33,209 nucleotides of DNA from Actinomycetota bacterium (GTDB taxonomy: Bacteria; Actinomycetota; Thermoleophilia; Gaiellales; Gaiellaceae): the NCBI GenBank assembly GCA_013813345.1, contig JACCRW010000066.1:1-33209 (forward strand), given 5' to 3'. Each line of letters starts with the position of its first letter. Position 1 is the stretch's first letter. Positions 1 to 18,353 of the stretch are shown here, piece by piece. The notes beneath the pieces are model-generated. The model made no database searches and had not been told where the DNA came from. It saw only the letters and a program-made list of their open reading frames with translations. The position numbers were made by a program, and so were the translations under genes.

Positions 1-796
1 TCGCCGCCGGGGTCTCGCCACCCGCCGCGAACCACTCGCGGTAGCGGTTGTACTGGTAGCGGAGGTGCTCGCCGATCTCAGCCCAGGAACGCTCGGGATC
101 CTCGGTGACGAAGACGGTGGGGTTGAGCGCCACCTGGAAATCGGCGGGATCGTGCCCTGCCTCCGCGAGCGCCTGACGGTAGGTCGCGTAGTGCTCGACC
201 GAGATGTAGGCATCGGGCATGAAGTGACAGCCGAGCCGCCCCGCGCGCTCAGCGGCCTTTGCCGTGCCGCCGCCGAGCCAGAGCGGCGGGCCGCCCGGCT
301 GAAACGGGGTCGGCGTCACCGTGACGGCTTCGAAGCTCCAATGGGCGCCGCGATGGGAGAACGGCTCGCCCGTCCAGGCTCTGCGAGCAACCTCGATCAG
401 CTCCTCCGTGCGCGTCCCCCGCTCCGCTCGCGGCACCCCCAGCACGCGGAACTCGTCGCGCCGATAGCCGAGCCCGAGGCCGAGCTCGAGCCTGCCGCCG
501 CTGAGCTGGTCGACGAGAGCCGCATCCTCGGCGAAGCGGATCGGATGGTGGAGCGGCGCGAGCAGGACGGCCGAGCCGAGCCTGATCGTGGTCGTCCGCA
601 CGGCGAGAGCGGCGAGGAACGGGAAGACAGAAGGCAGATAGCCCTCGTCGGTCACATGATGCTCGGAGACCTGCACCGACTCGAACCCGGCCGCCTCCGC
701 CCAGGCGATCTGGTCGAGGGTCTCGCGGTAGAGCTCCGCGTAGGGCCGCTTCCACCGCGAGGGGTTCCGCAGGTCGTACCAGACGCCGAACCTCAT
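1..796 (-). CDS. LLM-class (luciferase-like) flavin/F420-dependent oxidoreductase; C-terminus lies beyond the left window edge
   Basis: Not in the supplied ORF track because it is open to the edge. Hand translation of the reverse strand from ATG 796..794 gives 265 codons with no stop: MRFGVWYDLRNPSRWKRPYAELYRETLDQIAWAEAAGFESVQVSEHHVTDEGYLPSVFPFLAALAVRTTTIRLGSAVLLAPLHHPIRFAEDAALVDQLSGGRLELGLGLGYRRDEF... This is a typical LLM TIM-barrel pattern. The ATG overlaps the upstream SDR stop (ATGA, 793-796). The + ORF 65..805 is its antisense shadow. Confidence 0.8.
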   Translation of the reverse strand, partial: MRFGVWYDLRNPSRWKRPYAELYRETLDQIAWAEAAGFESVQVSEHHVTDEGYLPSVFPFLAALAVRTTTIRLGSAVLLAPLHHPIRFAEDAALVDQLSGGRLELGLGLGYRRDEFRVLGVPRAERGTRTEELIEVARRAWTGEPFSHRGAHWSFEAVTVTPTPFQPGGPPLWLGGGTAKAAERAGRLGCHFMPDAYISVEHYATYRQALAEAGHDPADFQVALNPTVFVTEDPERSWAEIGEHLRYQYNRYREWFAAGGETPAA

Positions 797-1554
797 CGGA
801 TGTAGCTCGCGCCGTTGACGTCCAGCGTGGCGCCGGTCAGGTGGCGGACGCGGCCGGTGGCGAGGAACGCGACGAGGCCGGCGACGTCCCCCGGCGGCAC
901 CCATTCCCCCATCGCGAGCGTCGCGGTCAGCGCCTCCTCCCCGCCCCGGCTCGCGGCCGCTTGCTCCGACATGCGCGTGCGGACGACGCCCGGCGCCACG
1001 ACATAGGAGAGGACGCCATCGGCGGCGTGGTTCCGGGCGATCGTCTGCGCCAGCGCCTTGACCGCGGACTTCGAGGCGGCATACGCGACGAGATCGGAGT
1101 TGCCGGCGCCGCGTTGCGCCGCCCAGCTAGAGAGCGTGATCAGCGTGCCGCCGCCGCGCTCGCGAAAGTGCCGCACGGCGTCGCGCATCAGCGCGGCCGG
1201 CGCGAGCACGTTGACGCGCAACGTACGCTCCCAGGCCTCGTTCCAGGCAGCATCCTCGACGTCGAGCGGCGTCTCGAGCATGAGCGCGGCGTTCAAGACG
1301 AGGACGTCGACGCGGCCGCGCCAGGCGACGCCCTCGGCCCATAGGCGCGCCGGCGACGTTGGGTCGAGAAGGTCGGCGCCGACGAGTAGCTTCCGCTCGT
1401 CGGGAATCGCCGCCGTCGCAGCGCGGGCGCCCGCCTCGTCGCTGCCGTAGTGAGCGACCACGTCGGCGCCCTGCTCGCCGAGCGCTCGCACGATCGAAGC
1501 TCCGATCCCCTTCGAGGCGCCCGTGACGAGGATCGTCCTTCCTTCCAGACTCAC
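793..1554 (-). CDS. SDR-family oxidoreductase (paralog of 24388..25152)
   Basis: 253 aa. Rossmann motif ILVTGASKGIGASI and catalytic S...YAASK. The GTG start at 1554 overlaps the cupin stop (GTGA), and the stop overlaps the next ATG (ATGA). Confidence 0.9.
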   Translation of the reverse strand: MSLEGRTILVTGASKGIGASIVRALGEQGADVVAHYGSDEAGARAATAAIPDERKLLVGADLLDPTSPARLWAEGVAWRGRVDVLVLNAALMLETPLDVEDAAWNEAWERTLRVNVLAPAALMRDAVRHFRERGGGTLITLSSWAAQRGAGNSDLVAYAASKSAVKALAQTIARNHAADGVLSYVVAPGVVRTRMSEQAAASRGGEEALTATLAMGEWVPPGDVAGLVAFLATGRVRHLTGATLDVNGASYIR

Positions 1555-1898
1555 TCGACTTCCTCGTAGTGGTCGTCGCCCTCGATGTACGCAGGCGCGT
1601 TCAGGACGAGGTAGGCGATCTCGCCCTCGAAAGAGTAGAGCTCGCCGCGCGGGACGATGACGACGTCGCCAGCTTTCGCGACGACCGGTTCGGCAGCCCC
1701 GAGCGTGAAGCGCGCCGAGCCTTCGAGGACGTAATAGACGCGGGTCGAGCGCGGCGTCCAGAGCGGCCGGTGCGCGCCCGAGAGACGCACGTGGGTCAGG
1801 CTCAGTCCCACATTGTCTTCGTAGCGGACGAGCGGCCGCATCACGAGATCATCCTCGGGCCCCTCCACCTCGGGTCGCTCTTGAGCGCGGATCAGCAT
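1551..1898 (-). CDS. Cupin-domain protein
   Basis: 115 aa. Small beta-barrel pattern (THVRLSGAHRPLWTPRSTRVYYVLEGSARF...GDVVIVPRGELYSFEG). ATGA overlap with the upstream SDR stop at 1898 and GTGA overlap downstream. Confidence 0.75.
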   Translation of the reverse strand: MLIRAQERPEVEGPEDDLVMRPLVRYEDNVGLSLTHVRLSGAHRPLWTPRSTRVYYVLEGSARFTLGAAEPVVAKAGDVVIVPRGELYSFEGEIAYLVLNAPAYIEGDDHYEEVE

Positions 1899-2644
1899 CA
1901 GAGAACGCCCGCGTCGACGGGGAGGAGCGCGCCCGTAATCCCCGCGGAGAGATCGCTCGCGAGGAAGAGCGCTGCGCGCGCGACGTCTTCCTCGGTCGCC
2001 ATCCGACCGAGCGCGGTTCCGGCAGCCGCCTCGGCGATCGCCTGCTCCACGGGAAGTCCCCCGTCGGCCGCGCGCCGCTCAAACCGGGCGCGGAGCGCGT
2101 CCGTCAGGATCGGCCCCGGCGCGAGCCCGTTGACGCGGATGCCGTGACGCCCCGCGTCGAGCGCGGCCGTCCGGACGAGGCCGAGGACGGCGTGCTTCGA
2201 GGCCGTGTAGACGGGCTGACTGCGGTGGGCGCGCCAGGCGTTCAATGACGCCATGACGACGATCGAGCCGCCGCCGCCGCGGAGGGCGGCGATTCCGTGC
2301 TTGAGAGTCGCCGCGACCCCACGCACGTTGACCGCGAACACCGCGTCGAGCTGCGCGAGGTCGAGCTCGGCCGTCTCGCTCCAGGGCGGCACGACGCCTG
2401 CGTTCGCGACGACGATGTCGAGCCGGCCGAAGCGCTCGACAGTCTCGCGAAACGCGGCTGCGACCGTCTCCTCGGCGCTCACGTCTGCTGTCAACGCCGC
2501 CCAGCCGGTGGGCGCGCCGGGCTCGAGATCGACCACCGAGCCGGTCGCTCCCTTTGCCGCGAGCTCCTGCGCGATCGCCGCTCCGAGCCCGCGGGAGCCG
2601 CCGGTGACGAGCGCAACCCGCCCCTCCAACAGGCCGGAGGACAC
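1898..2644 (-). CDS. SDR-family oxidoreductase
   Basis: Only the C-terminal 248 codons of the 791-aa track ORF look like a protein family (VALVTGGSRGLGAAIA, NAGV, YTASK). GTG 2644..2642 shares its G with the TAG stop of the gcvPB-like gene (TAGTG). Confidence 0.88.
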   Translation of the reverse strand: MSSGLLEGRVALVTGGSRGLGAAIAQELAAKGATGSVVDLEPGAPTGWAALTADVSAEETVAAAFRETVERFGRLDIVVANAGVVPPWSETAELDLAQLDAVFAVNVRGVAATLKHGIAALRGGGGSIVVMASLNAWRAHRSQPVYTASKHAVLGLVRTAALDAGRHGIRVNGLAPGPILTDALRARFERRAADGGLPVEQAIAEAAAGTALGRMATEEDVARAALFLASDLSAGITGALLPVDAGVL

Positions 2645-4227
2645 TACGTCGCGACCTTGGCCCAGTCCTCGGTGGCGTCGCCGTCGCCCTCGACCGGCAC
2701 AGGCCGCTTGCGCTTGTACGCGCGCCACGTCGTGGCCCAGGTGGACGGATCGTCGAGATTGCGCCCGTCGAGCTGGCGGATCGCCTGGTTGTGCGGCGCC
2801 GTGCGGACGAGCTCGGGGTCGGAGTACGCCTCCTCGACGACGTGCGCGAGGACGTCGATCCACTCGTCCACGTCCTCCTTCGACCACATCTCGCCCGCCT
2901 CGGGCGTGAAGGGCTGCGGCACGAGCCACGGCTCGTGGCTGAGCCAGAACGCGTCGATCCCGAAGTCGACCATTCGGTTCTGCACGTCCACGACCGTGAT
3001 CCCCGTGTCCTCCTCGAGTTGCCCAAGGCTGTAGCGCGTCATCTCGAGCCGCGGCGCGGTCAGATGCGGTTGCGACTTCGTGACGCCGCGGATCTCGAGC
3101 AGCCGCTTCTCCATGTAGTTGTTCAGGAGGACGGAGATGTCCGAAGCCTCGTCGATCCCCGCGGCGCCCATCGCGCGACTCCACGTGTAGGCATAGACGA
3201 GCTGCGGCACGTTGCCGAAGAACTCGCGCACCTTGCCGATGCTGTCCGGCCGGTCGCGGTCGAGGCGATAGCCGCCTCCCTCCCGGGCAACGACCGGCGA
3301 GGGGAGGAAGCGCGCGAGCTCGGCGGTGCAGCCATACGCGCCGACGGCCGGCCCGCCGCCCGCCTTCGGCGCTCCGAAGGTCTTGTGGAGCATGTACATG
3401 CACGCATCGAAGCCGAGGTCGCGGGCCTTCAGCTTCCCCATCACCCCGTTGAAGTTCGCGTGGTCGTAGAAGCAGAGCCCGCCGGCGTCGTGGACGACCT
3501 CGACCCACCGGTCGATCTCGGGGTTGTAGATCCCCATGTCGTCCGGGTTCCCGACCATCAGCGCCGCCGTGCGCTCCGAGACGGCGGCCTCGAGCGCCTC
3601 GAGCGAGGGATAGCCGTTCTCCTCGAGCGGGAGCGTCACGATCTTGAAGCCCGCGGCCGCGGCCGTCGCCGGGTTGCACGGATGCGCCTGGATCGTCGTC
3701 ACGATCTCGTCGCGCTGCGCGAGCTCGCCCCGCGAGGCGTGGTAGGCGCGCGTGAGCACCGCGTTCGTGTACGCGGCGTGGGCACCGCCTCCCGGCTGGA
3801 AGACGAACTGATCCATGCCCGAGAGCGCGCGCAGGATCAGGTCGAGCCCGTGCACGAGCTCGAGCACGCCCTGCAGCGTCTCGTCGTCCTGGTCGGGGTG
3901 CAGCTCCGCGACCTCCGGCCGCGCCACGAGCTCCCACGCGAGCCGCGGGTTGTACTTCATCGTGCAGGTACCGAAGAGGCTGATCCCCATCATCCCGAGC
4001 GTCTCCTGGGAGAGGTGGAGGTAATGACGGAGAACCTCCGGCTCCGAGAGCTCGGGCAGCTCCGGCGGCTCGGTTCGGCGCAGTCCGGCCGGGACGAGCT
4101 CGGCCGGGTCGCCGACCGCGTCGCGCACCTCCGGCTCGACCTCGTCGAAGACGATGCCGCGACGCCCGGGCCGACCCATTTCCATGACCAGCGGCTCGTC
4201 CCAGACGGCTGCGTGGTACCGCCTCAT
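2644..4227 (-). CDS. gcvPB: Glycine dehydrogenase (aminomethyl-transferring) subunit 2-like PLP enzyme (divergent GcvPB)
   Basis: 527 aa. Collinear with two-subunit P-protein beta subunits (LPELSEPEVLRHY..., GTCTMKYNP, LHKTF PLP-lysine motif with K282 at 3384..3382). The ATG overlaps the gcvPA stop (ATGA, 4224-4227). Confidence 0.85.
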   Translation of the reverse strand: MRRYHAAVWDEPLVMEMGRPGRRGIVFDEVEPEVRDAVGDPAELVPAGLRRTEPPELPELSEPEVLRHYLHLSQETLGMMGISLFGTCTMKYNPRLAWELVARPEVAELHPDQDDETLQGVLELVHGLDLILRALSGMDQFVFQPGGGAHAAYTNAVLTRAYHASRGELAQRDEIVTTIQAHPCNPATAAAAGFKIVTLPLEENGYPSLEALEAAVSERTAALMVGNPDDMGIYNPEIDRWVEVVHDAGGLCFYDHANFNGVMGKLKARDLGFDACMYMLHKTFGAPKAGGGPAVGAYGCTAELARFLPSPVVAREGGGYRLDRDRPDSIGKVREFFGNVPQLVYAYTWSRAMGAAGIDEASDISVLLNNYMEKRLLEIRGVTKSQPHLTAPRLEMTRYSLGQLEEDTGITVVDVQNRMVDFGIDAFWLSHEPWLVPQPFTPEAGEMWSKEDVDEWIDVLAHVVEEAYSDPELVRTAPHNQAIRQLDGRNLDDPSTWATTWRAYKRKRPVPVEGDGDATEDWAKVAT

Positions 4228-5615
4228 GCAAGCACATCCGAGACCACGCCGACGAGCCGGTCGATGTCCTCACGCGTGTGCACCTCGGTGACGCAATAGA
4301 GAGCGCTCTGTCCGAGCTCCGGGAAGTCGCGCGAGAGATCGCTCCCCCCGAAGATCCCTTGCTCGCGCAGACCGGCGTTCACGTCCGCCACGGTCGCGCC
4401 CGCGTCGTCGAAGCAGACGACGAGCTCCTTGAAGAAGCCGTCCGGGAAGAGGACGCGGACGCCGTCGAGCTCCGCCAGCCGCCGGGCCGCGTAATGACTT
4501 CGCCCGACGATCAGACGGCCGACTTCCGCGAATCCCTCCGGCCCCAGCAGCGCCATGTACGCGGCGTTCGCGACAGCGTGGAGGTAGACCGAGTTGCCGG
4601 TCCAGTCGTTCCCCTCCTCGCGCAGCCCGTACGAGGTCTGGTGGAAGAGCGCGATCCCGAAGCCGTGCTCCCCGGCGACGGTCTCGGCGATGCTCAGGTT
4701 GAGCGTCGGATACTCGTGCGCGTAGCGCTCCTCGTCGCGCGTCGCGATGAAGCCGCCCGCGCCACCCCCGCAGGACATGTGGACGCCGAGCGGCTGGACG
4801 GAGCCGACGACGATGTCGGCGCCGTACTCGGAAGGTGGCGCGACGATCCCGAGCGAGATCGGGTCGACGCCGACGATCGTCTCTGCCCCGGCCGCGCGCG
4901 CGAGCGCTGCGATCTCTGCGGCGGTCGTCTCGAACATGCCGAGGTAGCCGGGGTTCTCGAAGAGCACCGCCGCGGTTCGCGACGAGAGCTTCGCTCGCAG
5001 GTCGTCGAGGTCGAGCCCTCCCGTGACGGCGTCGTGCTCCACCAGCTCGACCTCGATGTGGCCGGGAAGCTCGGCGGCGCCGCAGTAGGTTCGGATCACG
5101 GCGAGCCGCTCCTGCCCGATCCGGCGTGGGACGAGCACATGGGAGCGCTCGGTCAGGCGGGCGGCCATCCTGATCGCGTGCCCCTCGGCACAGCCCCAGC
5201 TGTAGACCGGCAGGCCGACGAATTCCATCCCCACGAGCTCCCCGAGCTGGCTCGCGAACTCGAACCACGCCTGGTTGCGGCCGTGGTCGGACGACGGTGT
5301 CCCCCACACCGGCGTCAGGAACTCGCTCCGGCGCGCAATCTCGTCCACGATCGCCGGCACGTGGTGCTGCCAGATCCCGCCGCCGAGGAAGCTGAGGTTG
5401 CGCTCACACGTCTCGTTGCGGCCGAGCAGGTCGAGCAGGTGCCGCCGCAACGCGGGCTCGGAGGTCAGCGCGGGCGGCAGGTCGAGCTCACCCTGGAGGC
5501 GGTGCTCCGGTGGGATCTGGACGAAGAGCGACTCGACATCGGGGGCGCCGATCGCGTCCAGAAGCTCGCGATGCTGCTCCTCGGTCGAGTTCGGCATGTA
5601 CGGATGCGCCTTCAT
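4224..5615 (-). CDS. gcvPA: Glycine dehydrogenase (aminomethyl-transferring) subunit 1-like (GcvPA)
   Basis: 463 aa. N-terminal YMPNSTEEQHRELLDAIG..., FLGGGIWQHHVPAIVDEI and TSYGLREEG are typical of P-protein alpha subunits. ATGA overlap with the upstream gene at 5612-5615. Confidence 0.88.
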   Translation of the reverse strand: MKAHPYMPNSTEEQHRELLDAIGAPDVESLFVQIPPEHRLQGELDLPPALTSEPALRRHLLDLLGRNETCERNLSFLGGGIWQHHVPAIVDEIARRSEFLTPVWGTPSSDHGRNQAWFEFASQLGELVGMEFVGLPVYSWGCAEGHAIRMAARLTERSHVLVPRRIGQERLAVIRTYCGAAELPGHIEVELVEHDAVTGGLDLDDLRAKLSSRTAAVLFENPGYLGMFETTAAEIAALARAAGAETIVGVDPISLGIVAPPSEYGADIVVGSVQPLGVHMSCGGGAGGFIATRDEERYAHEYPTLNLSIAETVAGEHGFGIALFHQTSYGLREEGNDWTGNSVYLHAVANAAYMALLGPEGFAEVGRLIVGRSHYAARRLAELDGVRVLFPDGFFKELVVCFDDAGATVADVNAGLREQGIFGGSDLSRDFPELGQSALYCVTEVHTREDIDRLVGVVSDVLA

Positions 5616-6739
5616 GCGGCCACCTTGAAGACGACGTCGCGGCGGGGCGCCACGTGGACGCGGCGGTAACCCGTGAGCTCAGAGTCCAACTCAGGATCGC
5701 CGGTGTCGACGCGCAGCCACGGCGGGTCGAGGCCGAGGAGCTTCCCGAGCCCCGCGACCACCTCGACATTCTCGAGCCCGATCCTGCGGAGGACGGTCGG
5801 GCTCAGCTGCTGGTTGCCGCGCCCGAGCAGCGCTCCCTGGCCGCCGACAACGCCGACGACGAGCGTCGCCGCCTGGCCATCGATCAGCTCGAGCAGCTCC
5901 CGCTCGCCGAGGTCGGCGCCGACGAGCCGGCCGCCGTGGACTGCGTCGATGCCGAGCAGCGTCTTCGGCAGGCCAAGGTGCGCCAGGACGCGCCGCGTGG
6001 TCGTCCCCGGCCCGAGCACGTAGACGCGACGCGGATCCATCTCGCCCGCAAGCGAACGGCAGACAGCGTCCAGCGCCGCCTCGTCCGTCGGCCCGGAGCG
6101 CGCCTTTGCGGCTTGCATGCGGAGCCGATCCTCGGGAACCAGGGCGGCGCCGTAGAGCCGCGTCTCGATCCGGCCCTCGCGGGCGGCGTCCTCGTCGACA
6201 TCGACGACCTCCGCCTCGCGGAGTGGCGCGCTCGCGCCGGCGAGGACGAACGCCGCAGCGACCTCGCCGGCGTTCTCGGGGCTCGTCGCGAAGACGGCGG
6301 AGTGCATCTTGACGCCGGTCGGAATCCCCAGGATGGGAAGGCGGTCGCAGACGACCTCATAGATGTCGCGAGCCGTGCCGTCGCCGCCAGCGAAGAAGAT
6401 CAGCTCGACCTCGCGCCGCGCGAGCTCGGCTGCGGCGGCCCGCGTGTCGGCCGCAGTCGTCGATCCATCCCCGCCGGGAAGCACGTCGATCGAGAACCCG
6501 CGGCCGAGCGCAAGATCGCCGCCCATCTCGCCAGCCGCAGCGACGAGCTCGAAGCGGACTTTGTGTTGCTGCGACACAAGGTCGCGCTCCAGCCGTACGA
6601 GCGCGCGCTCGGCTCGGTCGGCGGCAACCGGGGTCGCCCCCAGCTCGCGCGCGCGCTCGACCACACCGTCGGTTCCCTTCAGCCCGACCCGCCCTCCCAT
6701 GCCGGCGATCGGGTTGACGATCAGGCCGATGCGGATCAC
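5612..6739 (-). CDS. ATP-NAD kinase family protein (AcoX-like)
   Basis: 375 aa, the C-terminal part of the 780-aa track ORF. IGLIVNPIAGMGG and the GGDGT motif (FFAGGDGTARDI) are present. GTG 6739..6737 overlaps the aminotransferase TGA (GTGA). Confidence 0.75.
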   Translation of the reverse strand: MIRIGLIVNPIAGMGGRVGLKGTDGVVERARELGATPVAADRAERALVRLERDLVSQQHKVRFELVAAAGEMGGDLALGRGFSIDVLPGGDGSTTAADTRAAAAELARREVELIFFAGGDGTARDIYEVVCDRLPILGIPTGVKMHSAVFATSPENAGEVAAAFVLAGASAPLREAEVVDVDEDAAREGRIETRLYGAALVPEDRLRMQAAKARSGPTDEAALDAVCRSLAGEMDPRRVYVLGPGTTTRRVLAHLGLPKTLLGIDAVHGGRLVGADLGERELLELIDGQAATLVVGVVGGQGALLGRGNQQLSPTVLRRIGLENVEVVAGLGKLLGLDPPWLRVDTGDPELDSELTGYRRVHVAPRRDVVFKVAA

Positions 6740-8145
6740 AACGCACCCTCGCTGCGCAGCTCGGCCGCCACCTCGTCGACGGCGCGCCGGACCGTCGTCA
6801 CGAGCTCGTCGAGCTCGTCCTCGGAGATCACGAACGGCGGCGCGAAGGAGATCGCGTCCGAGGCCGGGAGCGCGCGCGTGATCACGCCGAGCTCGAGGCA
6901 GCGGCGCGTGACGCGCGCCGCGACCTTCCCCAGCGGGTCGAAGCGCCGCGGCGGATCCTTCGCAGCCACGAACTCGAGTGCGCCGATCAGAGCCTGGCCG
7001 CGCACCTCCCCGACGAGCGGATGATCGGCGAGCTCGGCCCTCAGCCGCTCGTGCATGAACGCGCCGCGACTCGCCGCCTGAGCGACGAGCCCCTCGTTCT
7101 CGATCAGGTCGAGATTCGTCATCGCGACCGCGGCCGCGAGCGGATGGGAGCTGTAGGTGTAGCCGTGCCCGAACGGCCCGGATTCGGCCCCGGCCTCGAC
7201 GAGGACGCGCCAGACGCGCTCCGAGACGATGCAGGCCGAGAGCGGCACATACCCGGAGGTAAGGCCCTTCGCGACCGTGATCAGATCGGGCTCGATCCCG
7301 AAGACGTCGCTCCCGAACCACTCGCCGAGCCGCCCGAAGCCCGTGATCACCTCGTCGGCGATCAGGAGCACGTCGTGCCGGCGGAGCACGGCCTGGATCT
7401 TTCCGAAGTAGCCGGCGGGCGGGACGAGCACGCCGCCCGCGCCCTGGATCGGCTCGGCGATGAACGCGGCGACCGTGTCCGGGCCTTCGGCGAGGATCAG
7501 CGCCTCGAGGTCGTCGGCGAGCTTCTGGGCGAAGTCCTCGTCGCTCTGGCCGGGCTCCGCCTCCCAGAGCCGGTGCGGCGCCGTCGTGTGCCGGATCATC
7601 GGCAGCGGCAGGTCGAAGTTCGCGTGCACGCCCGGCAGCCCGGTCAGCCCGCCGGCCATCACCGTGACCCCGTGGTAGCCGCGCTGGCGCGCGACGATCT
7701 TCTTCTTCTCGGGCCGGCCGAGGACGTTGTTGTAGTACCAGACGATCTTCACCTGGGTGTCGTTCGCATCCGACCCGGTGCAGCCGTAGAAGACCTTTGA
7801 CATCCCGGCGGGCGCCAGCGAGATCAGCCGCTCGGCGAGGAGAGCCGGCGTGTCTGTGCCCATCGAGGAAAAGGAGTGGTAGTAGCCGAGCCGCTCGGCG
7901 TGGATCTTCAGCGTCTCGGCGATCTCCGGCCGGCCATAGCCGACGTTCACGCACCAGAGCCCGGCCATCCCGTCGATGTAGCTGCGCCCGTGGATATCGG
8001 TGAGGCGGGCGCCGCTGCCCTCGACGATCAGGCTCGGCGAGCCGGCTCGCTCGTGCTGGTCGAGCTGAGTGAAGGGGTGGAAGACGAAGCGGCGGTCGGC
8101 CTCCTCGACGTTCGCGGCATCGACGCGCTTGGGCTCGACGGCTAT
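6736..8145 (-). CDS. Class-III (omega) aminotransferase; start codon non-canonical or uncertain
   Basis: The track ORF begins at ATG 7968 (MAGLWCVNVGYG...). The frame is open from 8220, and residues IAVEPKRVDAANVEEADRRFVFHPFTQLDQHERAGSPSLIVEGSGARLTDIHGRSYIDG upstream of that Met belong to the conserved fold. PLP-lysine context DLITVAKGLTSGY. SD AAGGAGA at 8157..8151 sits 5 nt before ATA 8145..8143. Confidence 0.82.
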   Translation of the reverse strand: MAVEPKRVDAANVEEADRRFVFHPFTQLDQHERAGSPSLIVEGSGARLTDIHGRSYIDGMAGLWCVNVGYGRPEIAETLKIHAERLGYYHSFSSMGTDTPALLAERLISLAPAGMSKVFYGCTGSDANDTQVKIVWYYNNVLGRPEKKKIVARQRGYHGVTVMAGGLTGLPGVHANFDLPLPMIRHTTAPHRLWEAEPGQSDEDFAQKLADDLEALILAEGPDTVAAFIAEPIQGAGGVLVPPAGYFGKIQAVLRRHDVLLIADEVITGFGRLGEWFGSDVFGIEPDLITVAKGLTSGYVPLSACIVSERVWRVLVEAGAESGPFGHGYTYSSHPLAAAVAMTNLDLIENEGLVAQAASRGAFMHERLRAELADHPLVGEVRGQALIGALEFVAAKDPPRRFDPLGKVAARVTRRCLELGVITRALPASDAISFAPPFVISEDELDELVTTVRRAVDEVAAELRSEGAL

Positions 8146-8150
8146 GACGG

Positions 8151-8157
8151 TCTCCTT
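8151..8157 (-). promoter_or_regulatory. Shine-Dalgarno (AAGGAGA) for the aminotransferase
   Basis: Reverse strand reads cgAAAGGAGAccgtcATAgccgtcgag. It lies in the 70-nt gap after the ABC ATPase stop (8216). Confidence 0.55.
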
Positions 8158-8215
8158 TCGCGGCTGCGCTGACGAACTCCCTGATTCTGCACGCGGCTGG
8201 AGAGGCGGCGGCGCA

Positions 8216-9046
8216 TCAGCTCAGGATCGCGCTCAGGAAGGCCTGGGTCCGCTCGTTCTGCGGGCGTTCGATGACATCGCGCGCGCCGCCCTCCTCGACG
8301 ACGACGCCCTCGTCCATGAAGAGAACGCGGTCGCCGACCTCCCGCGCGAAGCCCATCTCGTGGGTGACGACGATCATCGTCATCCCCGACTCCGCGAGCC
8401 GCTTCATCTCCTCGAGGATCCCGCCGATCAGCTCGGGGTCGAGCGCGGAGGTCGCCTCGTCGAAGAGCATCAGCTGCGGCCGCATCGCGAGGGCTCGCGC
8501 GATCGCGACGCGCTGCTTCTGGCCGCCGGAGAGCTGACTCGGATACTGCCGCGCCTTCTCGCCCATCCCGACCCGCTCGAGCTCCTCGAGGCTCCGCTCC
8601 TTCGCCTCTCGGCGCGTCAGGCCGAGAGCCCGTGTGGGCCCGAGCGCGACGTTGTCGGCCGCCGTCATGTGCGGGAAGAGGTTGAAGTGCTGGAAGACCA
8701 TCCCGATGTGCGTCCGGTAGAAGCGGAGGTCGCGTTCGTAGCGCATTCGTTCGGCCGGCCGGCGGCGGGGCACCTCGCCCGTGAGGCAGTGACCGAGAAA
8801 GGTGACGCTGCCGGCGTCGGGCGGCGCGATGAAGTTGAGGCAGCGCAGGAGGGTGCTCTTGCCGGAGCCGCTCGGGCCGATCACGACGAGCACCTCGCCC
8901 TTCGCCACCTTCAGGTCGACGCCGCGGAGCACGTGGATCTCTCGCTCCTTCTGGCCGCGATTGAACGATTTGTGGATCCCCTCGGCGACGACGATCTCCT
9001 CGCCGAGATCGAGCTCCGCCGCCTCGTTCGCCGCCGCCTCGGTCAC
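8216..9046 (-). CDS. Polar amino-acid ABC transporter ATP-binding protein
   Basis: 276 aa from GTG 9046 (VTEAAANE...). Walker [10 protein letters not shown], signature LSGGQKQR and Walker [17 protein letters not shown] overlap with the permease stop at 9043. Confidence 0.9.
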
Positions 9047-9783
9047 GTCGGGACCCGGCCGCCGAACCGGTAGCGCTGCATCCGCTCGAGCGGAGAGGGG
9101 CCGGAGCCGCCTCCCCTCACATGACGCGCGAGCCGCCGCTCGAGCAGCGCCGCGGCCGCCGAAATCGCAAGGATCAGGACTATGTAGGCGACAGCCGTCG
9201 CGGTGTAGAGCTCGAACGGCGCCCGCTCGGTGCTGACGAGCTGGATCGTCGTCCCCATCAGGTCGAGGAGGCCGATCACCGCGACGATCGACGAGTCCTT
9301 GACGATGTCGACGAGCTGGTTGACGAGGCCCGGCACCGCCACGCGGCCGGCCTGCGGGAAGGTGACGCTCGAGAACGTCCGCGTGTGGCCGAGCCCGAGC
9401 GCGAGCGCGGCCTCGCGCTGGCCGTGGTCGACCGACTGGATCGCCGCCCGGTAGATCTCCGCCATATAGGCGCTGTTCAGGAGCGTCAGAGCGACGACTC
9501 CCGCCGCGAACGTGCCGAGGTTGATCCCGAAGACCGCCGAGATCCCGAAGTAGATGAAGAGCACGTAGACGTAGAGCGAGAGCGCCCGGAAGACCTGGGT
9601 GTATGTGTACGCGAGCGCGCGAAGCGGCCTGGAGGGGGCGAGACGGCAGAGCGCGACGACGAGCCCGAGCACGAGCGAGAGGACGAAGGAAATCGCCGAG
9701 AGCTGCAGGGTCAGCTTGAGCCCGTGGGCGAGCGCTCCGGCGGACTCCGGGACGACGTGCCACTGGAACGTGTACGCGACCAT
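9043..9783 (-). CDS. Amino-acid ABC transporter permease (His/Glu/Gln/Arg/opine family)
   Basis: 246 aa from ATG 9783 ([10 protein letters not shown]...). Hydrophobic, with an EAA-like loop ([18 protein letters not shown]). ATGA overlap with the upstream permease stop. Confidence 0.88.
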
Positions 9784-10457
9784 CACGGGAGCCGCAGCAC
9801 CCGCTCCAGCACCGTCACCCCGGCCGAGAAGACGGCGACGAGGGCCACGAGAATGACCGCAACCGCGGTGAAGGCCTCGAACGGGGTGAAGAAGTTGATG
9901 TTCAGATCGTTCGCGACGCTGACCATGTCGCTGACCGCGATGATCGAGAGCAGGGTCGCGCCCTTGAGCAGGCCGATGAAGACGTTCCCGAGCGGCGGAA
10001 TCACGATCCGCAGCGTCTGCGGGAGCAGGACGTGCCGGTAGGTCCCGGTCCGGCTCAGCCCGAGCGAGCGCGAGGCCTCGGCCTGGCCGGCGTCGAGCGC
10101 CTGAAGCCCGCCGCGGAAGATCTCGGCCGTGTAGGCCGAGCCGGTGAGTGTCAAGGCGACGATTCCCGCCTGCACGGGGCTGAAGTTGAGCCCGATCACG
10201 ATCGCGACCCCGAAGTAGACCCAGTAGAGGAAGACGAGCAGCGGCACTCCTCGCAGGATCTGCACGTAGGCGAATGCGGGCGCGCTGAGCAGCCGGACGC
10301 CCGAGAGGCGCAGCACGGCGATCCCGATCCCGAGCGCGCACGCGAGGACGAACGAGATCGCCGTCACCCAGACGTCGAGCCAGGCCCCGAGCAGGAAGAG
10401 GTCCCAGCGGTCGAGCACCGGCCCCCAGGCGAACTCGTATGCGAGCACGTTCGTCAT
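9783..10457 (-). CDS. Amino-acid ABC transporter permease (His/Glu/Gln/Arg/opine family)
   Basis: 224 aa. Multi-TM, with EAA loop [18 protein letters not shown]. Confidence 0.9.
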
Positions 10458-10491
10458 CGTGGCGGCGATGCCCTCGATTCGGCGGGAGCGA

Positions 10492-11478
10492 CTACTGGCC
10501 GATCGTCTCCGCGTTCCCGTTGATCCCGACGACGGCAGTTTGGAGATCGAACTTCTCGGTATTCGGCACGACCCACTTCTCCCACAGCGCCCTGAACGTG
10601 CCGTGCGAGGCCTGGTAGCGGGCCCAGTTCGAGACCCAGAGCCAGAGCTTCGTGTCGCCCTGCGTCATGAAGTAGCTGTTCGCGTCGACGAAGAGCGGCG
10701 GCACGGGCAGCGCGGCGAGATCGTCGTTGCCGCCGAGGACGGACGACGTCGAGAACTCGCTGAAGATCGCGGCGTCGGCGCGACCGACGGCCACCTCCGT
10801 CGCGGCGTCGTTCTCGGACGCGAACTCGTTGAAGGTTGCCTTCGGGAAGAGCGCTCCCGAGCTCGCAGCCTGGGAGCTGCCCTGCAGGACCGCGAACCTC
10901 GACGTCGCAAGGTCCTCGAGCGTGCTCGCGTTCGAGTCCTTCTTGACGACGACCACGTTGGATTCGTAGAAGGCCGGGATGTCTGCGAAGTCGCCGCGGA
11001 GCGCGCGCGACGGCAGGATCGTGACCGCGATCCCGAGCATGTCGAACTTGCCGGCGGAGAGGCCCGGGAAGAGTTGGGCAAACGGCGTCTCCACATACTC
11101 GGGCGTAACTCCGAGCTCCTTCATCATCATTTCCGTGATCTCGACCTGATAGCCGGTCGGCTTCCCGCTGTCGTCCTTGAACTGGAGCGGCGGGAAGCTC
11201 AGGTCGACTCCCAGCTTCGCCGTCTTGTCGCGCGTCCACTTGTCGAGGATCGAGTCGCCCGACGAGCTGGAGCCGCCCGCGGTCGTCGCGCCTGCGGGCG
11301 CTGCTGCGTTGGGCTCGTCATCGTCGTCGCCCATACAGCCCGAGAGCCCGAGGACGCCGGCGCCGAGCAGGCCAAGGCCGCCGGCTTCGAGTAGCCGCCG
11401 CCGGCTCGTCCCACCGCGGGCCGCGGCGCTCCCCGACTCGGCCGCAGGTGTCCCGGTCTCCACGTCATGCGTGCTCAT
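10492..11478 (-). CDS. Family-3 amino-acid ABC substrate-binding lipoprotein with a Tat-type signal
   Basis: The track ORF starts at TTG 11490. ATG 11478 is preferred because it is preceded by GGAGAcaggc. Signal SRRRLLEAGG...GLSGC (twin-arginine plus lipobox), then a low-complexity linker and a periplasmic-binding fold. Confidence 0.87.
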   Translation of the reverse strand: MSTHDVETGTPAAESGSAAARGGTSRRRLLEAGGLGLLGAGVLGLSGCMGDDDDEPNAAAPAGATTAGGSSSSGDSILDKWTRDKTAKLGVDLSFPPLQFKDDSGKPTGYQVEITEMMMKELGVTPEYVETPFAQLFPGLSAGKFDMLGIAVTILPSRALRGDFADIPAFYESNVVVVKKDSNASTLEDLATSRFAVLQGSSQAASSGALFPKATFNEFASENDAATEVAVGRADAAIFSEFSTSSVLGGNDDLAALPVPPLFVDANSYFMTQGDTKLWLWVSNWARYQASHGTFRALWEKWVVPNTEKFDLQTAVVGINGNAETIGQ

Positions 11479-11511
11479 GCCTGTCTCCAATCGGAGTAGT
11501 GGCTTCCTCGA

Positions 11512-11528
11512 TGTTCACGATACGAACA
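11512..11528. promoter_or_regulatory. Palindrome TGTTC-N7-GAACA in the 5' leader of the ABC importer (possible operator)
   Basis: Plus strand reads aTGTTCacgatacGAACAgt. It is AT-rich relative to its surroundings and lies between the predicted -10 and the SD. Confidence 0.25.
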
Positions 11529-11549
11529 GTCGTGCGCTGAGGATGGTCC

Positions 11550-11578
11550 AGGCTATGCCCGCACTTCGGCCGAGTCAA
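11550..11578 (-). promoter_or_regulatory. Candidate sigma-70-type promoter (TTGACT-17 nt-TAGCCT)
   Basis: Reverse strand: TTGACT at 11578..11573, a 17-nt spacer, then TAGCCT at 11555..11550. It lies in the 95-nt gap between the DapA-family stop and the SBP start. Confidence 0.4.
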
Positions 11579-11585
11579 GCCTTCC

Positions 11586-12542
11586 TCAGGCTCGCGAGAG
11601 CGCGGGATCCGGCTCGAGCTCGTCGAGCAGGACGTCGAGCTCGGCAAGGAGCGGCGTGATCTGGCCGAGTCGCTCACGCCCCTCGGCGCCGAGCTCGGCG
11701 AACGTCGTCAGCGGCGGTCGCACGTCGCCGACCGGGTGCCCGACAGCGCCAGCGAGCGCCTTCGAGTAGCACTGGTGCCCGTAGGTCGGGTGCCCCTCGG
11801 CGATCACATGGTCGATCCGGGAGATCAGCCGCTGGATCCGCTTCGCCTCCTCGAGCCGGCCCGCGACGAGCATGTCCCAGATCCGCGCCGAGGCGCGCGG
11901 GATGTAGTTCCCGTACGGATTGACGTAGCCGACCGCGCCCAGGAGGAACGACTCGACGATGCGCTCGCCGGCGAAAACGCTCATCACTCCGTCCGTGGCC
12001 TCGACGATGTCGTAGACGCGGGCGACGTCCATGCTCGCCTCCTTGATGTAGCGGACGTTCTCGAAGGCGCGCGTGAGCCGGGCGACGAACTCGGCGGACA
12101 TGTCCACGTTGGACGTGACCGGGTTGTTGTAGAGCATGAGCGGGATCGAGACCGCCTCGGCAACGGCGCGGTAGTAGGCGAAGATCTCGGCCTCGGTCGG
12201 GGTGTAGTAGTAGGGCGGCACGATCATCAGCCCGTCCGCGCCGAGCTCCTCGGCCTCCCGGCTGTAGCGAACGGCGTTCGCCGTCGAGGCGTTCATCGTC
12301 CCGACGAGCACCGGGATCCGGCCGTCCAGATGCTTGACGGTCTCCTCGACGAGTTGCGTCCGCTCCTCATCGGTCACGGTCAGGAACTCGCCCGTCGTCC
12401 CGAGGACGATCACGCCCGGGACACCCGACTCGAGCTGCCAGTCGAGGAAGTCGCGGAGAGCATCGACGTCGAGCTGCGAGCCGTCCTCGGTGAAGGGGGT
12501 GACGAGGACCGAGTAGCTACCGCGAAACTCGCTGGGCATCAT
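11586..12542 (-). CDS. Dihydrodipicolinate synthase/N-acetylneuraminate lyase (DapA) family protein
   Basis: SD AAGGAGA at 12551..12545 is followed by ATGATG, so the start is 12542 or 12539. The track start 12611 is probably too long. TPF..., GTTGEF and Schiff-base lysine context YIKEAS are present. Confidence 0.85.
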   Translation of the reverse strand: MMPSEFRGSYSVLVTPFTEDGSQLDVDALRDFLDWQLESGVPGVIVLGTTGEFLTVTDEERTQLVEETVKHLDGRIPVLVGTMNASTANAVRYSREAEELGADGLMIVPPYYYTPTEAEIFAYYRAVAEAVSIPLMLYNNPVTSNVDMSAEFVARLTRAFENVRYIKEASMDVARVYDIVEATDGVMSVFAGERIVESFLLGAVGYVNPYGNYIPRASARIWDMLVAGRLEEAKRIQRLISRIDHVIAEGHPTYGHQCYSKALAGAVGHPVGDVRPPLTTFAELGAEGRERLGQITPLLAELDVLLDELEPDPALSRA

Positions 12543-13737
12543 GGTCTCCTTGCGCTCGGGGCCTGCACTCGACTCTAGCCGCAGCGGTAGGCGCTGCGAC
12601 ACCCTCGTCATCGGCGGCGGCCTGACCGGCTGCGCGGCGGCCTACTACCTCGCGAAGGCCGGAATCGACGTCGTTCTTGCCGAGCGGCACAGCCTGAACG
12701 CCGAGGCCTCCGGGCGGAACGCGGGCGGCTTCCACGTCCAGATCCAGTTCGAGCCCTTCGTCACGCTCGGCGAGGACTGGGCCCGGAGCTGGGCGCCGAC
12801 GATCCCGCTCCTGATCGACGCGGTCCGGCTCTGGCAGGAGCTGCCCGCCGAGCTCGGCGCCGACCTGGAGGTGAAGGTGAGCGGCGGCCTCCTCGCCGCA
12901 GAGACCGAGGAGGAGCTGGCGGCGATCGAGCGGAAGGCCGCGATCGAGCGGGAGGCCGGGCTCGAGGTCGAGCTCCTCTCGCGCGAGGAGCTGAGGCGCA
13001 CCGCGCCGTACCTCTCTCGCTCGCTCGCCGGCGGGCTCTTCTGCCCGGTCGAGGGCAAGGCGAGCCCGCTCGTCTCGACACCGGCATTCGCGCGCGCGGC
13101 GCGAGCGGAGGGCGCCGTTCTCGCGCCCGGCAGCGATGTGCTCGCGATCGAGCAGACCGCGGTCGGATTCCGGGTCGAGACCGACCGCGGCCCGATCGAG
13201 TGCGAGCGGGTGGTCGACTGCGCGGGCACCGCCGCCGGACGAGTGGCGGAGCTCGTGGGCGTACCGCTGCCCGTCGAGAGCGTCCCGCTCCAGGCGCACG
13301 TGACCGAGCCGGTCGCGCAGCTCGTCCAGCACCTCGTCTACTGCGCGGGGGAGCCGCTGACCGTGAAGCAGTCCGTCCACGGCTCGATCCTGATCGGCGG
13401 CGGCTGGTCGTCGGAGCTCGACGACGCCGGCCGCGCCGACGTGAACATGGCCTCCCTGCGGGGAAATCTCCGCGTTGCCACACGCGTGATCCCCGCTCTC
13501 GCCCACGTTCGCCTGCTCCGGATCTGGACCGGCTTCTGCAACGGCACCCCGGATCACCGCCCGATCCTCGGCGAGCTGGACGAAGTACCAGGCTTCTTCG
13601 TCGCCTCGTTTCCCTATCTCGGCTTCACGGCGGCGCCGATGATGGGGAAGCTCGTCGCCGACCTCTCGCGGGGCCGGTCGGTCCCGTACGACTTGGCCCC
13701 GTTCTCTGCGGCCCGGTTCGATCCCGCCCCCGTCTAG
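12541..13737 (+). CDS. FAD-dependent oxidoreductase (DAO / sarcosine-oxidase-beta / opine-oxidase-B type), stand-alone
   Basis: 398 aa. The dinucleotide fold DTLVIGGGLTGCAAAYYLAKAG begins about 20 aa in. Full-length collinear homology to 18354..19580. The start is ATG 12541 or TTG 12550. No SD is visible. Confidence 0.85.
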   Translation: MVSLRSGPALDSSRSGRRCDTLVIGGGLTGCAAAYYLAKAGIDVVLAERHSLNAEASGRNAGGFHVQIQFEPFVTLGEDWARSWAPTIPLLIDAVRLWQELPAELGADLEVKVSGGLLAAETEEELAAIERKAAIEREAGLEVELLSREELRRTAPYLSRSLAGGLFCPVEGKASPLVSTPAFARAARAEGAVLAPGSDVLAIEQTAVGFRVETDRGPIECERVVDCAGTAAGRVAELVGVPLPVESVPLQAHVTEPVAQLVQHLVYCAGEPLTVKQSVHGSILIGGGWSSELDDAGRADVNMASLRGNLRVATRVIPALAHVRLLRIWTGFCNGTPDHRPILGELDEVPGFFVASFPYLGFTAAPMMGKLVADLSRGRSVPYDLAPFSAARFDPAPV

Positions 13738-14105
13738 CCACAGGCGAAGCTGCGATTCAGGATCGCCGGATAGTCGACCCACGCCTCCTGGCTCGAACGC
13801 TGCTCGAGCAGGCGCTGGACTCCTCGCGCGATCAGGTCGAATTCGCCGTGGTCGATCCCGTAGACGAGGATCACGCCCGCGTGAGAGCGGGCCGCCTCGG
13901 CCCATTCGCGCAGGATTCCCGGGAAGTGAGCGATGTTGTGGGTGACGAGAATGCGTTGCTCGGCCGCACCAAGCGCGAGCACCTCGCCGTCAGGGAGACC
14001 TTCGAGCTGCCGTTCGTCGTCGAGCGCCCGAACGTCGTGCTCGTGCTCACGAAGCGCTCCACCGACTCGTCGCCCCGACACGTGGGCGTCGAGAAGCAGT
14101 CGCAC
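13734..14105 (-). CDS. DUF5615-family PIN-like putative toxin
   Basis: 123 aa from GTG 14105 (VRLLLDAHVSGRRVG...). It is the partner of the DUF433 gene. The 153-aa track version begins at a GTG inside the inserted palindromic element. Confidence 0.65.
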   Translation of the reverse strand: MRLLLDAHVSGRRVGGALREHEHDVRALDDERQLEGLPDGEVLALGAAEQRILVTHNIAHFPGILREWAEAARSHAGVILVYGIDHGEFDLIARGVQRLLEQRSSQEAWVDYPAILNRSFACG

Positions 14106-14108
14106 CGT

Positions 14109-14277
14109 TAGATGGTTGATCGGAGAATGACGGCGGCCCGGATGACGGCCACGACACGGCGCCGGATCACCACCCTCGCGAACCGCCCAGGCCACGGGCC
14201 TGAACGGCCCGCGAGTGCGGCGCCCGGCTTGGTCGTGACCGCCCCCGGCTGCGCGTCATTCTCCGATCAACCATCTA
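14109..14277. mobile_element. 169-bp MITE-like palindromic element (24-bp perfect terminal inverted repeats, TA at both ends)
   Basis: 14109..14132 tagatggttgatcggagaatgacg is the exact reverse complement of 14254..14277 cgtcattctccgatcaaccatcta. Further imperfect nested inverted repeats lie inside (cggccacgac/gtcgtgaccg, ctcgcg/cgcgag, caggcc-acg-ggcctg). It has no coding capacity. Confidence 0.5.
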
Positions 14278-14703
14278 TTCGGCGACGCGGATGAACGGAT
14301 AGAGCTCGCGGAGCTCGTCGAGCGGGCGGTGCTGCTCCTCTAGGATCGCCTCGATCTCCTCCGGGAAGCGGTCGGCGTACGCGTGCGCGAGCTGCAGGTG
14401 ACGTTCGGTCACGAGCGGATGGCTCGCCCGAAGCGAGTCCTCGTCTCCGTCGTAGGATCGAAGCAGGTCGACGATCTCCCAGACATCGAGGCCGCTTCCG
14501 ATCGCCCACGCGCGACGCGGAGCATCCCGGAACGCGATCCCGGGAAACAAGCGCGTCTTCGCCGCCTCTTCGGCGAGCTCCTCGACGACCACGCTCCGCG
14601 AGCGTCCGGACCGGCGTCCCTCCTCCCGAACGAGCAGGTCGGCCTGCTCACCGAGCCGGATCGAGAACGGCTGAGTTCTTGCGGGCCGTGCTCTACTACG
14701 CAT
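14275..14703 (-). CDS. DUF433-domain putative antitoxin with an N-terminal RHH-like segment
   Basis: 142 aa. FSIRLGEQADLLVREEGRRSGRSRSVVVEELAEE resembles a ribbon-helix-helix, followed by a DUF433-like core (PGIAFRD...RAWAIGSGLDVWEIV). The TAG stop is formed by the end of the element. Confidence 0.72.
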   Translation of the reverse strand: MRSRARPARTQPFSIRLGEQADLLVREEGRRSGRSRSVVVEELAEEAAKTRLFPGIAFRDAPRRAWAIGSGLDVWEIVDLLRSYDGDEDSLRASHPLVTERHLQLAHAYADRFPEEIEAILEEQHRPLDELRELYPFIRVAE

Positions 14704-18349: not shown

Positions 18350-18353
18350 CTCG

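Follow-up and report, generated by a model that had tools for sequence, protein, structure and literature searches.

The P-protein of Thermus thermophilus (EC 1.4.4.2, structure 1WYT) is a two-subunit enzyme, GcvPA/GcvPB, whose chains adopt fold type I of the enzymes dependent on pyridoxal 5'-phosphate (PLP). A comparable pair of subunits, here called PA and PB, is encoded in a 33,209-nucleotide stretch of DNA from a Gaiellaceae actinobacterium (contig JACCRW010000066.1 of assembly GCA_013813345.1, hereafter the window), directly downstream of a gene for a protein of NAD-kinase/diacylglycerol-kinase (DAG-kinase) fold, here called X. PA and PB share with the Thermus subunits the alpha/beta architecture, the PLP fold, the lysine of the HKTF motif and the chain lengths. 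They differ from them in being only about 36% identical, in forming a separate clade, in carrying altered motifs, and in being accompanied by X and dehydrogenases instead of gcvT and gcvH. As judged from sequence, X, PA and PB make up an ancient and widespread module that comprises a predicted two-subunit PLP enzyme and a strongly conserved kinase-fold protein.

The domains of X, its GGDGT motif and a partial match to DgkB are those of the NAD kinase/DAG kinase superfamily (PF01513, PF20143, PF00781), which includes the COG3199-type "predicted polyP/ATP NAD kinase" proteins. X departs from the superfamily in matching no NCBIfam model, in having no sequence relative in the PDB, in its length of 375 residues and in motifs of its own. 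Pairs of a kinase and a PLP enzyme that work on phosphorylated substrates are described in several settings, among them ThrB/ThrC, PduX/CobD, hydroxylysine kinase with its phospholyase, and sphingosine kinase with sphingosine-1-phosphate lyase. X is likewise translationally coupled to a PLP enzyme, and elsewhere pairs also with CobD/HisC-like and TrpB2-like enzymes. Unlike those pairs, the kinase family of X is a different one (sphingosine kinase excepted), its partner is of P-protein type, and phosphorylation of a substrate is hypothetical here. The initial annotation called X "AcoX-like", after AcoX of acetoin operons, a putative relationship; the likeness would be that X, as is reported for AcoX, accompanies a lipoyl-dependent system, at least in one locus (L047, see below). 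In the neighbourhoods of X that were examined, acetoin E1/E2 genes were not recognised. That annotation also knew of no described pathway with this combination of genes, and the literature on AcoX, COG3199, GcvP-like proteins and NAD kinase with glycine cleavage yielded no description of the X-PA-PB module. Papers on the glycine cleavage system (PMC12674515, PMC11227167) do not mention X.

A sister clade of the canonical P-protein

Membership of PA and PB in the P-protein fold is evident from the matches of 1WYT_B to PB (6.5e-80, 36% identity) and of 1WYT_A to PA (2.7e-57), and both subunits exceed the "equivalog" cutoffs of the NCBIfam GcvPA and GcvPB models. The PLP lysine is kept in PB, where MLHKTF aligns with NLHKTF of the Thermus, Escherichia coli and Synechocystis enzymes. 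Within this fold, the pair stands apart. In a neighbour-joining tree (the only method used) of 59 PB sequences with 100 bootstraps, the PB proteins linked to X were monophyletic to the exclusion of all five canonical sequences in 100 of 100 replicates, the canonical set being Thermus 1WYT_B, the C-terminal halves of the E. coli and Synechocystis proteins, and the PB subunits of two canonical operons found in the survey described below (L047 and L062). Pairwise identities agree with the tree: Thermus PB is 61% identical to canonical L047, 36% to the window PB, and 36% and 35% to the variant PB proteins of L030 and L042. The window pair is 31-37% identical to the canonical L047 and L062 pairs and 45-88% identical to other X-linked pairs.

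The difference is also visible in the signature motifs. E. coli, Thermus, L047 and L062 share one alpha-subunit loop, [SA]YTPYQPE[IV]SQG; the window PA has VWG-TPSSDHGRNQ in its place, and all 54 other variant PA sequences have a loop of the type AG-EPYEDHGRFQ. The YT of this loop reportedly lines the active site in the Thermus structure, which is offered as a lead and not as a result. In the beta subunit, canonical LGSCTMK is replaced in the variant clade by GTCTMK, SAHG[TS]NPA by [SA]HP[CSA][ND]xA, PST[LH]G by NP[ED]D[TM]G, DGAN (DGAN[LM]NA) by D[QH]AN, and PHGGGGPG by P[HK]G[CSA]xGP. The corresponding motifs of the window PB are FGTCTMK, QAHPCNPA, NPDDMG, DHAN (DHANFNG) and PKAGGGPA. The proposal in the initial annotation that the pair is not a canonical component of glycine cleavage is thus upheld by the separate clade and the altered motifs, and the phylogeny it had called for places PB outside the canonical P-proteins tested and not among them. 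PA/PB is best described as a sister clade of GcvPA/GcvPB with an apparently remodelled active-site region. That it is a distinct paralogue seems to us very likely; that it is not the housekeeping P-protein of its host is probable.

The kinase-fold partner

Both the N- and the C-terminal domains of NAD kinase are recognised in X (PF01513 at 3.4e-19, PF20143 at 1.1e-06), together with DAGK_cat (PF00781), and the GGDGT motif lies within an invariant FAGGDGTARD. Conservation is strong: in a set of 86 sequences that are 40-50% identical, 83 positions are conserved to 90% or more. The motifs peculiar to the family are VNPIAGMGG, GGQGxxFGRGNQQ and VDTGD. At E <= 1e-30 the family comprises 762 clusters (50% identity), and the best relatives of the window protein are encoded in Gaiellaceae metagenome-assembled genomes (MAGs), at 85-86% identity. 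The AlphaFold model is mediocre (pLDDT 74.8), and a Foldseek search with it returned only a weak and partial DgkB-like match of the N-terminal domain, with E no better than 3e-3, which is uninformative for substrate. A redox-active cysteine pair was considered and rejected, as X has no conserved cysteine. The one apparent aminotransferase-X fusion (P0121) that might have served as a "Rosetta stone" looks like a read-through of overlapping genes, and the other long forms of X carry no extra domain.

In a tree of X proteins, a separate and mostly archaeal clade sits beside PLP enzymes of other kinds. In two Bathyarchaeia loci (L045, 8457-12260; L058, 8361-12288) the X gene lies between genes for TrpB2-like and DegT/DnrJ-type PLP enzymes. 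In Peptoclostridium acidaminophilum (L098, 9992-12068) the stop codon of X overlaps a gene for a HisC/CobD-like PLP enzyme of 328 residues.

Distribution and conserved core of the module

A scan of one genome per species, based on aligned X homologues, yielded 80 loci, in which neighbouring genes were identified by tblastn with the proteins of the window. A variant PA/PB pair lies within 3.5 kb of X in 53 of the 80 loci, and in 41 of the 55 with sufficient flanking sequence. These loci span at least 10 phyla of Bacteria and Archaea. The order X-PA-PB is found in aerobes (Actinomycetota, Pseudomonas, Acidovorax, Roseomonas and other Alphaproteobacteria); PA-PB-X is the order in anaerobes (Clostridia/Tissierellia, Syntrophomonadaceae, Chloroflexota, Aminicenantes and Atribacteria) and in archaea (Bathy-, Heimdall- and Hadarchaeota).

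Beyond these three genes, conservation is graded. In about 20 loci the module has a short-chain dehydrogenase (SDR) gene beside it, in Heimdallarchaeota frequently two, and an Atribacteria locus carries SDR-PA-PB-X. Orthology of the first SDR of the window (SDR1) with the archaeal SDRs beside PA-PB-X is not established, identities being only 33-36%. At 68-83% identity, SDR1 follows PB in L009, L010, L016, L017 and L022, and the arrangement aminotransferase-X-PA-PB-SDR is confined to Actinomycetota relatives. The cupin, the second SDR (SDR2) and the luciferase-like oxidoreductase (LLM) that complete the window operon all follow only in L016 and L017; L018 has SDR2 and the LLM, and the cupin is conserved in L016 and L017 alone. 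In unrelated phyla (L036, L043, L048, L069 and L071), SDR2 also has homologues, at 51-65% identity, 4-8 kb away from the module. The initial annotation asked whether the neighbourhood recurs as a block. All eight genes recur only in close Gaiellales (L016, L017 and in part L018); X-PA-PB, often with an SDR, is deeply conserved, and aminotransferase-X-PA-PB-SDR extends across Actinomycetota. The conserved unit is therefore X-PA-PB, smaller than the eight genes.

The module is also plasmid-borne in cultured Rhodococcus, Paracoccus and Sphingomonas. Plasmid pRHL1 of R. jostii RHA1 and R. qingshengii carry the order APC permease-SDR-X-PA-PB-acyl-CoA synthetase-M20 deacylase, with an additional SDR upstream of the permease in R. 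qingshengii; Paracoccus aminophilus carries the module on pAMI4, and in Sphingomonas psychrotolerans it is flanked by zinc-dependent alcohol dehydrogenases (ADHs) and an LLM. A role of the module in 2-aminoisobutyrate catabolism of Rhodococcus was entertained as a guess and set aside, no literature support for it having been found.

On a plasmid of the haloarchaeon Natronosalvus halobius (L101, 4867-16348), X is grouped with genes for a member of the ornithine-cyclodeaminase family, a class-III aminotransferase, a TIGR03619 LLM, a DHDPS-family protein and SDRs; no PA/PB was found there by tblastn. Much of the gene set of the window is thus re-assorted in a distant haloarchaeon.

Function of the module

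The reading tentatively preferred here is that PA/PB is a lipoyl-linked decarboxylase paralogue of glycine type, with X as its accessory. In a PLP-dependent oxidative reaction, PA/PB would decarboxylate glycine or a small compound very close to it, either being made within the island of catabolic genes described below. The acceptor of the aminomethyl unit would most likely be a lipoyl H-protein whose gene lies elsewhere. Glycine could arise from the omega-aminotransferase acting on glyoxylate, or from the SoxB/ThiO-type oxidases and the products of the peptidase. X would be an ATP- or NAD-binding accessory of lipoyl-linked chemistry and not a pathway-specific substrate kinase, and the SDRs, the cupin and the F420-type LLM would perform redox steps on the carbon skeletons of a lineage-specific substrate.

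This reading is favoured because genes of glycine cleavage are found with X, or with the module, in several loci. Canonical gcvT-gcvH-gcvPA-gcvPB operons were found in L047 and L062, and in the former, a Syntrophomonadaceae MAG (1265-13646), a single long operon has the order gcvT-gcvH-gcvPA-gcvPB-ORF-radical SAM-LplA/B ligase-Lpd-X-NuoE-like-NuoF-like, in which X overlaps the stop codon of lpd. This X groups in the X tree with those of the variant modules. The operon is the clearest hint that the X family serves lipoyl- or NAD-linked decarboxylation. X adjoins gcvH-gcvT in L057, the variant PA-PB-X is followed by DUF436 and gcvT in L030, and in L075 a DAO-FAO_M-GCV_T gene of the sarcosine/dimethylglycine-dehydrogenase type lies 3.7 kb from the module. 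The same reading draws on the window and its flank, which together encode two SoxB/ThiO-like oxidases and one M24 peptidase, and on the omega/pyruvate type of the aminotransferase.

Several observations weigh against it. Within 10 kb of the module, gcvH, lpd and lplA were found in none of the 53 loci and gcvT in one (L030). The genes most often found nearby encode SDRs, zinc-dependent ADHs, LLMs and acyl-CoA synthetases, for which glycine cleavage offers no obvious role. The alpha loop, which does not vary between E. coli and Thermus, and four beta motifs around the PLP site are replaced in every variant, for which a different substrate or acceptor is the easier explanation. The archaeal X clade beside other PLP enzymes hints, furthermore, that X is a kinase supplying phospho-substrates. 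A link of the module to glycine cleavage nevertheless cannot be dismissed, given L047, L030 and L075.

The strongest alternative, which is possible and on balance doubtful, is that PA/PB decarboxylates some other amino acid in a kinase-coupled reaction and works without H-protein. X would phosphorylate a hydroxylated amino acid (serine, threonine or another hydroxy-amino acid), PA/PB would decarboxylate the phosphorylated (or otherwise substituted) amino acid to a primary amine, and the omega-transaminase would turn the amine into an aldehyde or ketone, with the SDRs and LLM, or elsewhere ADHs and an acyl-CoA synthetase, continuing the route. Such a scheme explains better than the glycine reading the lost motifs, the near absence of glycine cleavage partners (gcvH, gcvT and lpd being missing from nearly all module loci) and the dehydrogenase and CoA-ligase neighbours, which fit a route from amine through aldehyde to acid (aminotransferase, SDR/ADH, Aldedh and AMP-binding ligase). 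It also accords with the kinase-type GGDGT site of X and the resemblance of its N-terminal domain to DgkB, and with the translational coupling of X to PLP enzymes of four other families, whose characterised relatives mostly use phosphorylated substrates; the newly conserved D-H-G-[RK] of the alpha loop could bind an anionic group. A substrate kinase would, however, have no obvious role in the complete glycine cleavage-lipoylation-lpd operon of L047 or beside gcvH/gcvT in L057, and gcvT follows the variant module in L030. The X proteins paired with other PLP enzymes fall in the separate clade, so that function there may differ; the aminotransferase of the window is absent from most module loci, and no phosphatase or phospholyase is evident. 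The more general proposition that X-PA-PB is a self-contained, ATP-dependent PLP system with chemistry new for the P-protein fold is likewise a possibility on the doubtful side; it might, for example, decarboxylate an amino acid that is phosphorylated or otherwise substituted, in a reaction coupled to the kinase, or transfer an aminomethyl unit without H-protein.

An ATP-driven reverse reaction is unlikely. In this variant of "glycine synthase", X would activate and PA/PB would carboxylate an aminomethyl or amine carbanion to an alpha-amino acid. The module does occur commonly in anaerobes and archaea to which reductive glycine metabolism is attributed (Atribacteria, Syntrophomonadaceae and Bathyarchaeia; PMC11227167 for Atribacterota), and its partner X is predicted to bind ATP. 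Against this stands the catabolic and aerobic context of the window, with its importers and oxidases; enzymes of NAD-kinase/DAG-kinase fold are, moreover, not known to activate bicarbonate.

That PA/PB is an ordinary housekeeping P-protein whose gene pair happens to lie in a catabolic operon apart from gcvT and gcvH, X being an unrelated NAD kinase paralogue, is unlikely: scores above the equivalog cutoffs, the gcvPA/gcvPB names given by the Prokaryotic Genome Annotation Pipeline (PGAP) and the fact that gcvH is often unlinked in bacteria speak for it, and against it are the distinct clade with its lost invariant motifs, the low identity to the canonical L047 and L062 operons, an X-PA-PB linkage across domains of life far beyond chance, the plasmid-borne and accessory character of the module in cultured bacteria, and the absence of a riboswitch.

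The operon and its catabolic island

The eight overlapping minus-strand genes at 1-8145 (Table 1) that the initial annotation described are real, as their coding-type composition, open frames and family matches agree. The G+C content of the window is about 70%, that of third codon positions in the eight open reading frames (ORFs) is 0.84-0.94, and no internal stops occur (SDR1 being read in a corrected frame); Pfam and NCBIfam upheld the family assigned to each product. A stop-start overlap had been claimed at all seven junctions. All seven do overlap: GTGA at 6736-6739, ATGA at 5612-5615, ATGA at 4224-4227, TAGTG at 2642-2646, GTGA at 1551-1554 and ATGA at 793-796 are as read before, and the junction at 1896-1900 is TGATG, a 1-nt overlap, and not ATGA. 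The LLM, whose start ATG (796-794) overlaps the SDR2 stop, runs past the edge of the window; it has a full length of 333 residues in the near-identical L002/L012, and scores 172.9 against the cutoff of 166.9 for TIGR03619 (F420-dependent LLM).

Table 1. Features of the operon and of the island of which it is part
Feature	Position	Strand	Basis
LLM (luciferase-like oxidoreductase), partial, N-terminal 265 aa	1-796	minus	Pfam Bac_luciferase 7e-61
SDR2, short-chain dehydrogenase, 253 aa	793-1554	minus	adh_short and adh_short_C2
Small cupin, 115 aa	1551-1898	minus	Cupin_2 and Cupin_1; weak EutQ-like matches
SDR1, short-chain dehydrogenase, 248 aa, member of aminotransferase-X-PA-PB-SDR cassette	1898-2644	minus	adh_short_C2 2.6e-51
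PB, variant P-protein beta subunit, 527 aa	2644-4227	minus	NF003346 GcvPB 511.8 (cutoff 441)
PA, variant P-protein alpha subunit, 463 aa	4224-5615	minus	GDC-P; NF001696 GcvPA 417.3 (cutoff 364)
X, NAD-kinase/DAG-kinase-fold ATP-binding protein (predicted), 375 aa	5612-6739	minus	Pfam NAD_kinase 3.4e-19, NAD_kinase_C, DAGK_cat
Class-III omega-aminotransferase, 469 aa if begun at ATA 8145-8143	6736-8145	minus	Aminotran_3 5e-86
Ribosome-binding site AAAGGAG, 6 nt upstream of the aminotransferase ATA codon	8152-8158	minus	read from sequence
Polar-amino-acid-type ABC importer	8216-11478	minus	gene calls and Pfam on identical L002, L012
Importer ATPase	8216-9046	minus	
Importer permease	9043-9783	minus	
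Importer permease	9783-10457	minus	
Importer binding protein, SBP_bac_3	10492-11478	minus	
DHDPS-family lyase/aldolase no. 1, 317 aa	11586-12539	minus	PF00701; dapA model 180, below cutoff 206
Divergent FAD oxidase/dehydrogenase (DAO), SoxB/ThiO-like, 398 aa	12541-13737	plus	soxB family 1.9e-41, ThiO 1.6e-37, both below cutoff
Upstream half of island	14720-23667	minus	Pfam and NCBIfam
Aldedh	14720-16135	minus	
Two-domain VOC/glyoxalase	16446-~17400	minus	
DHDPS no. 2	17393-18349	minus	
OoxB-like DAO	18354-19679	minus	
OoxA-like (Fer2_BFD, SO_alpha_A3)	19570-21009	minus	
Second ABC importer, binding protein	21025-21933	minus	
Second ABC importer, permease	21977-22735	minus	
Second ABC importer, ATPase	22732-23667	minus	

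The operon is separated by 70 nt from the four-gene importer upstream, as had been stated, and no terminator-like sites were found on the minus strand between 1 and 14800. Linkage to gcvT and gcvH is typical of P-protein genes though not obligatory, and the reported absence of both, and of a glycine riboswitch, from the window was borne out: tblastn with E. coli GcvT and GcvH found neither gene in the 33 kb, and no Rfam family, hence no glycine riboswitch, was found in the whole window. The possibility raised earlier that gcvT and gcvH lie just past the left edge is answered by L002 and L012, which carry neither in the 5 kb beyond it. The remainder of the LLM comes first there, and after it an M24 peptidase (PepQ/DoeA-like, below cutoff), an ORF of 127 residues, a SoxB/ThiO-like DAO, a TIGR04076 protein, a second LLM and SBP_bac_5. 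Among the runs and contigs searched, the locus is present only in DNA-like metagenome data; the sequence occurs in many soil and terrestrial metagenomes, and an exact-protein search with PB returned only one contig of 3.9 kb.

The first gene of the operon is readily assigned as a class-III omega-aminotransferase by its PF00202 fold and its close match to characterised omega-transaminases, with a PRK06105 score of 589.6 against a cutoff of 517; the nearest solved structures are omega/GABA:pyruvate-type (gamma-aminobutyrate:pyruvate) transaminases (5KR6, 2.7e-170). A phospholyase identity was considered and rejected, as the best families and solved relatives are true omega-transaminases. Its start is unusual. 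The frame is open from an in-frame stop at about 8220, with no ATG, GTG or TTG until the ATG at 7968, so that gene callers shorten the product to 410 residues and lose 59. The conserved N-terminus (FVFHPFTQ...) can be translated only from the ATA at 8145-8143. No standard start codon occurs at this position: it is ATA in the window and in L006-8, and ATC in L016 (a Gaiellaceae MAG, 86% identical), where GGAGGAGG precedes it at about 8586. The ATA and the AAAGGAG are the same in nine independent assemblies, including a relative at 91% identity, and more distant orthologues start with ATG. Translation of the aminotransferase thus apparently begins at a non-canonical ATA that follows a strong ribosome-binding site, and such a start may hold back translation of this first operon gene.

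Three other Thermoleophilia loci (L009, L010 and L022) share the gene order SBP-OoxA-OoxB-DHDPS-VOC-Fer2_4-Aldedh-aminotransferase-X-PA-PB-SDR, and for this reason the eight genes are regarded as the distal part of something larger. They are the distal operon of a catabolic island of about 23 kb, which reaches to about 23.7 kb of the window, in a Gaiellaceae-like soil actinobacterium. By its predicted gene products, it would handle polar amino or imino acids taken up from outside (opine, D-hydroxyproline or small-peptide type). Described bacterial D-hydroxyproline and opine clusters combine a heteromeric OoxA/OoxB-type dehydrogenase with a DHDPS-family deaminase, a semialdehyde dehydrogenase and a polar amino-acid ABC importer. 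The upstream half resembles them in having an OoxA/OoxB-type dehydrogenase, a DHDPS-family gene, an aldehyde dehydrogenase and an SBP_bac_3 importer in one direction, an order kept in L009 and L010. It differs from them in that no proline-racemase-type epimerase was found among the annotated ORFs and all specific NCBIfam matches are below cutoff; none of those clusters is known to have the aminotransferase-X-PA-PB-SDR extension. For the binding protein of the first importer there are likewise only weak NCBIfam matches (Lys/Arg/Orn, cystine and EhuB-like).

Some further features of the region can be noted. The longest ORFs of the first DHDPS-family gene and of the divergent DAO leave only about 1 nt between them (12539-12541), so that one of the two genes, or both, probably starts further inside its ORF; alternatively, the promoters are situated within coding sequence. 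Between the DAO and Aldedh genes, at 13734-14703 on the minus strand, are a 142-aa ORF without family and a DUF5615 (PIN-like) ORF, which look like a toxin-antitoxin-type pair dropped into the island. The pair is intact in L006 and L007 (141 aa, and 119 aa for DUF5615), and in the window the 5' end of the DUF5615 ORF is disturbed by a 169-bp element at 14109-14277 with perfect 24-nt terminal inverted repeats (TAGATGGTTGATCGGAGAATGACG). This element is missing at the same site in three other metagenome runs, where 14107 is joined to 14275, and contig depth over it is 20-60x higher in three of four runs (X1, X12 and X13), which suggests a multicopy insertion resembling a miniature inverted-repeat transposable element. 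More catabolic genes occur past the island: they encode an additional LLM on the minus strand (25154-26044), the subunits of a CoA-transferase, two in number (25971-27759), and a 3-hydroxyacyl-CoA dehydrogenase (28534-29523), and an ABC system of the peptide/opine type with SBP_bac_5 follows at 29564-32234.

Implications

PGAP labels the variant pair [quoted passage not shown] and attaches glycine-catabolism Gene Ontology terms, as seen in the annotated plasmid records of R. qingshengii, Paracoccus and Sphingomonas (L097, L099 and L100). The names follow from the scores of the variant clade above the NCBIfam equivalog cutoffs, and are probably a systematic over-annotation. Pathway reconstructions that count gcvPA/gcvPB may therefore mix two clades; the reductive glycine pathway called in Atribacterota (PMC11227167) is one example. 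If the chemistry of the module does prove to be new, many gcvPA/gcvPB calls would rest on the wrong enzyme, and glycine cleavage or reductive glycine pathways reconstructed for archaeal and anaerobic MAGs, and for catabolic plasmids, would be affected as well.

The occurrence of X beside lpd in a complete glycine cleavage-lipoylation operon provides a first functional handle on the uncharacterised COG3199/AcoX-type proteins, and cultured hosts such as R. jostii RHA1 (pRHL1) and Paracoccus aminophilus (pAMI4) make the function of the module directly testable. It is important to emphasize that the glycine cleavage P-protein is among the most conserved of PLP enzymes, and that what appears to be an ancient sister clade with a rebuilt loop and a kinase-fold partner is a well-defined target for such tests.

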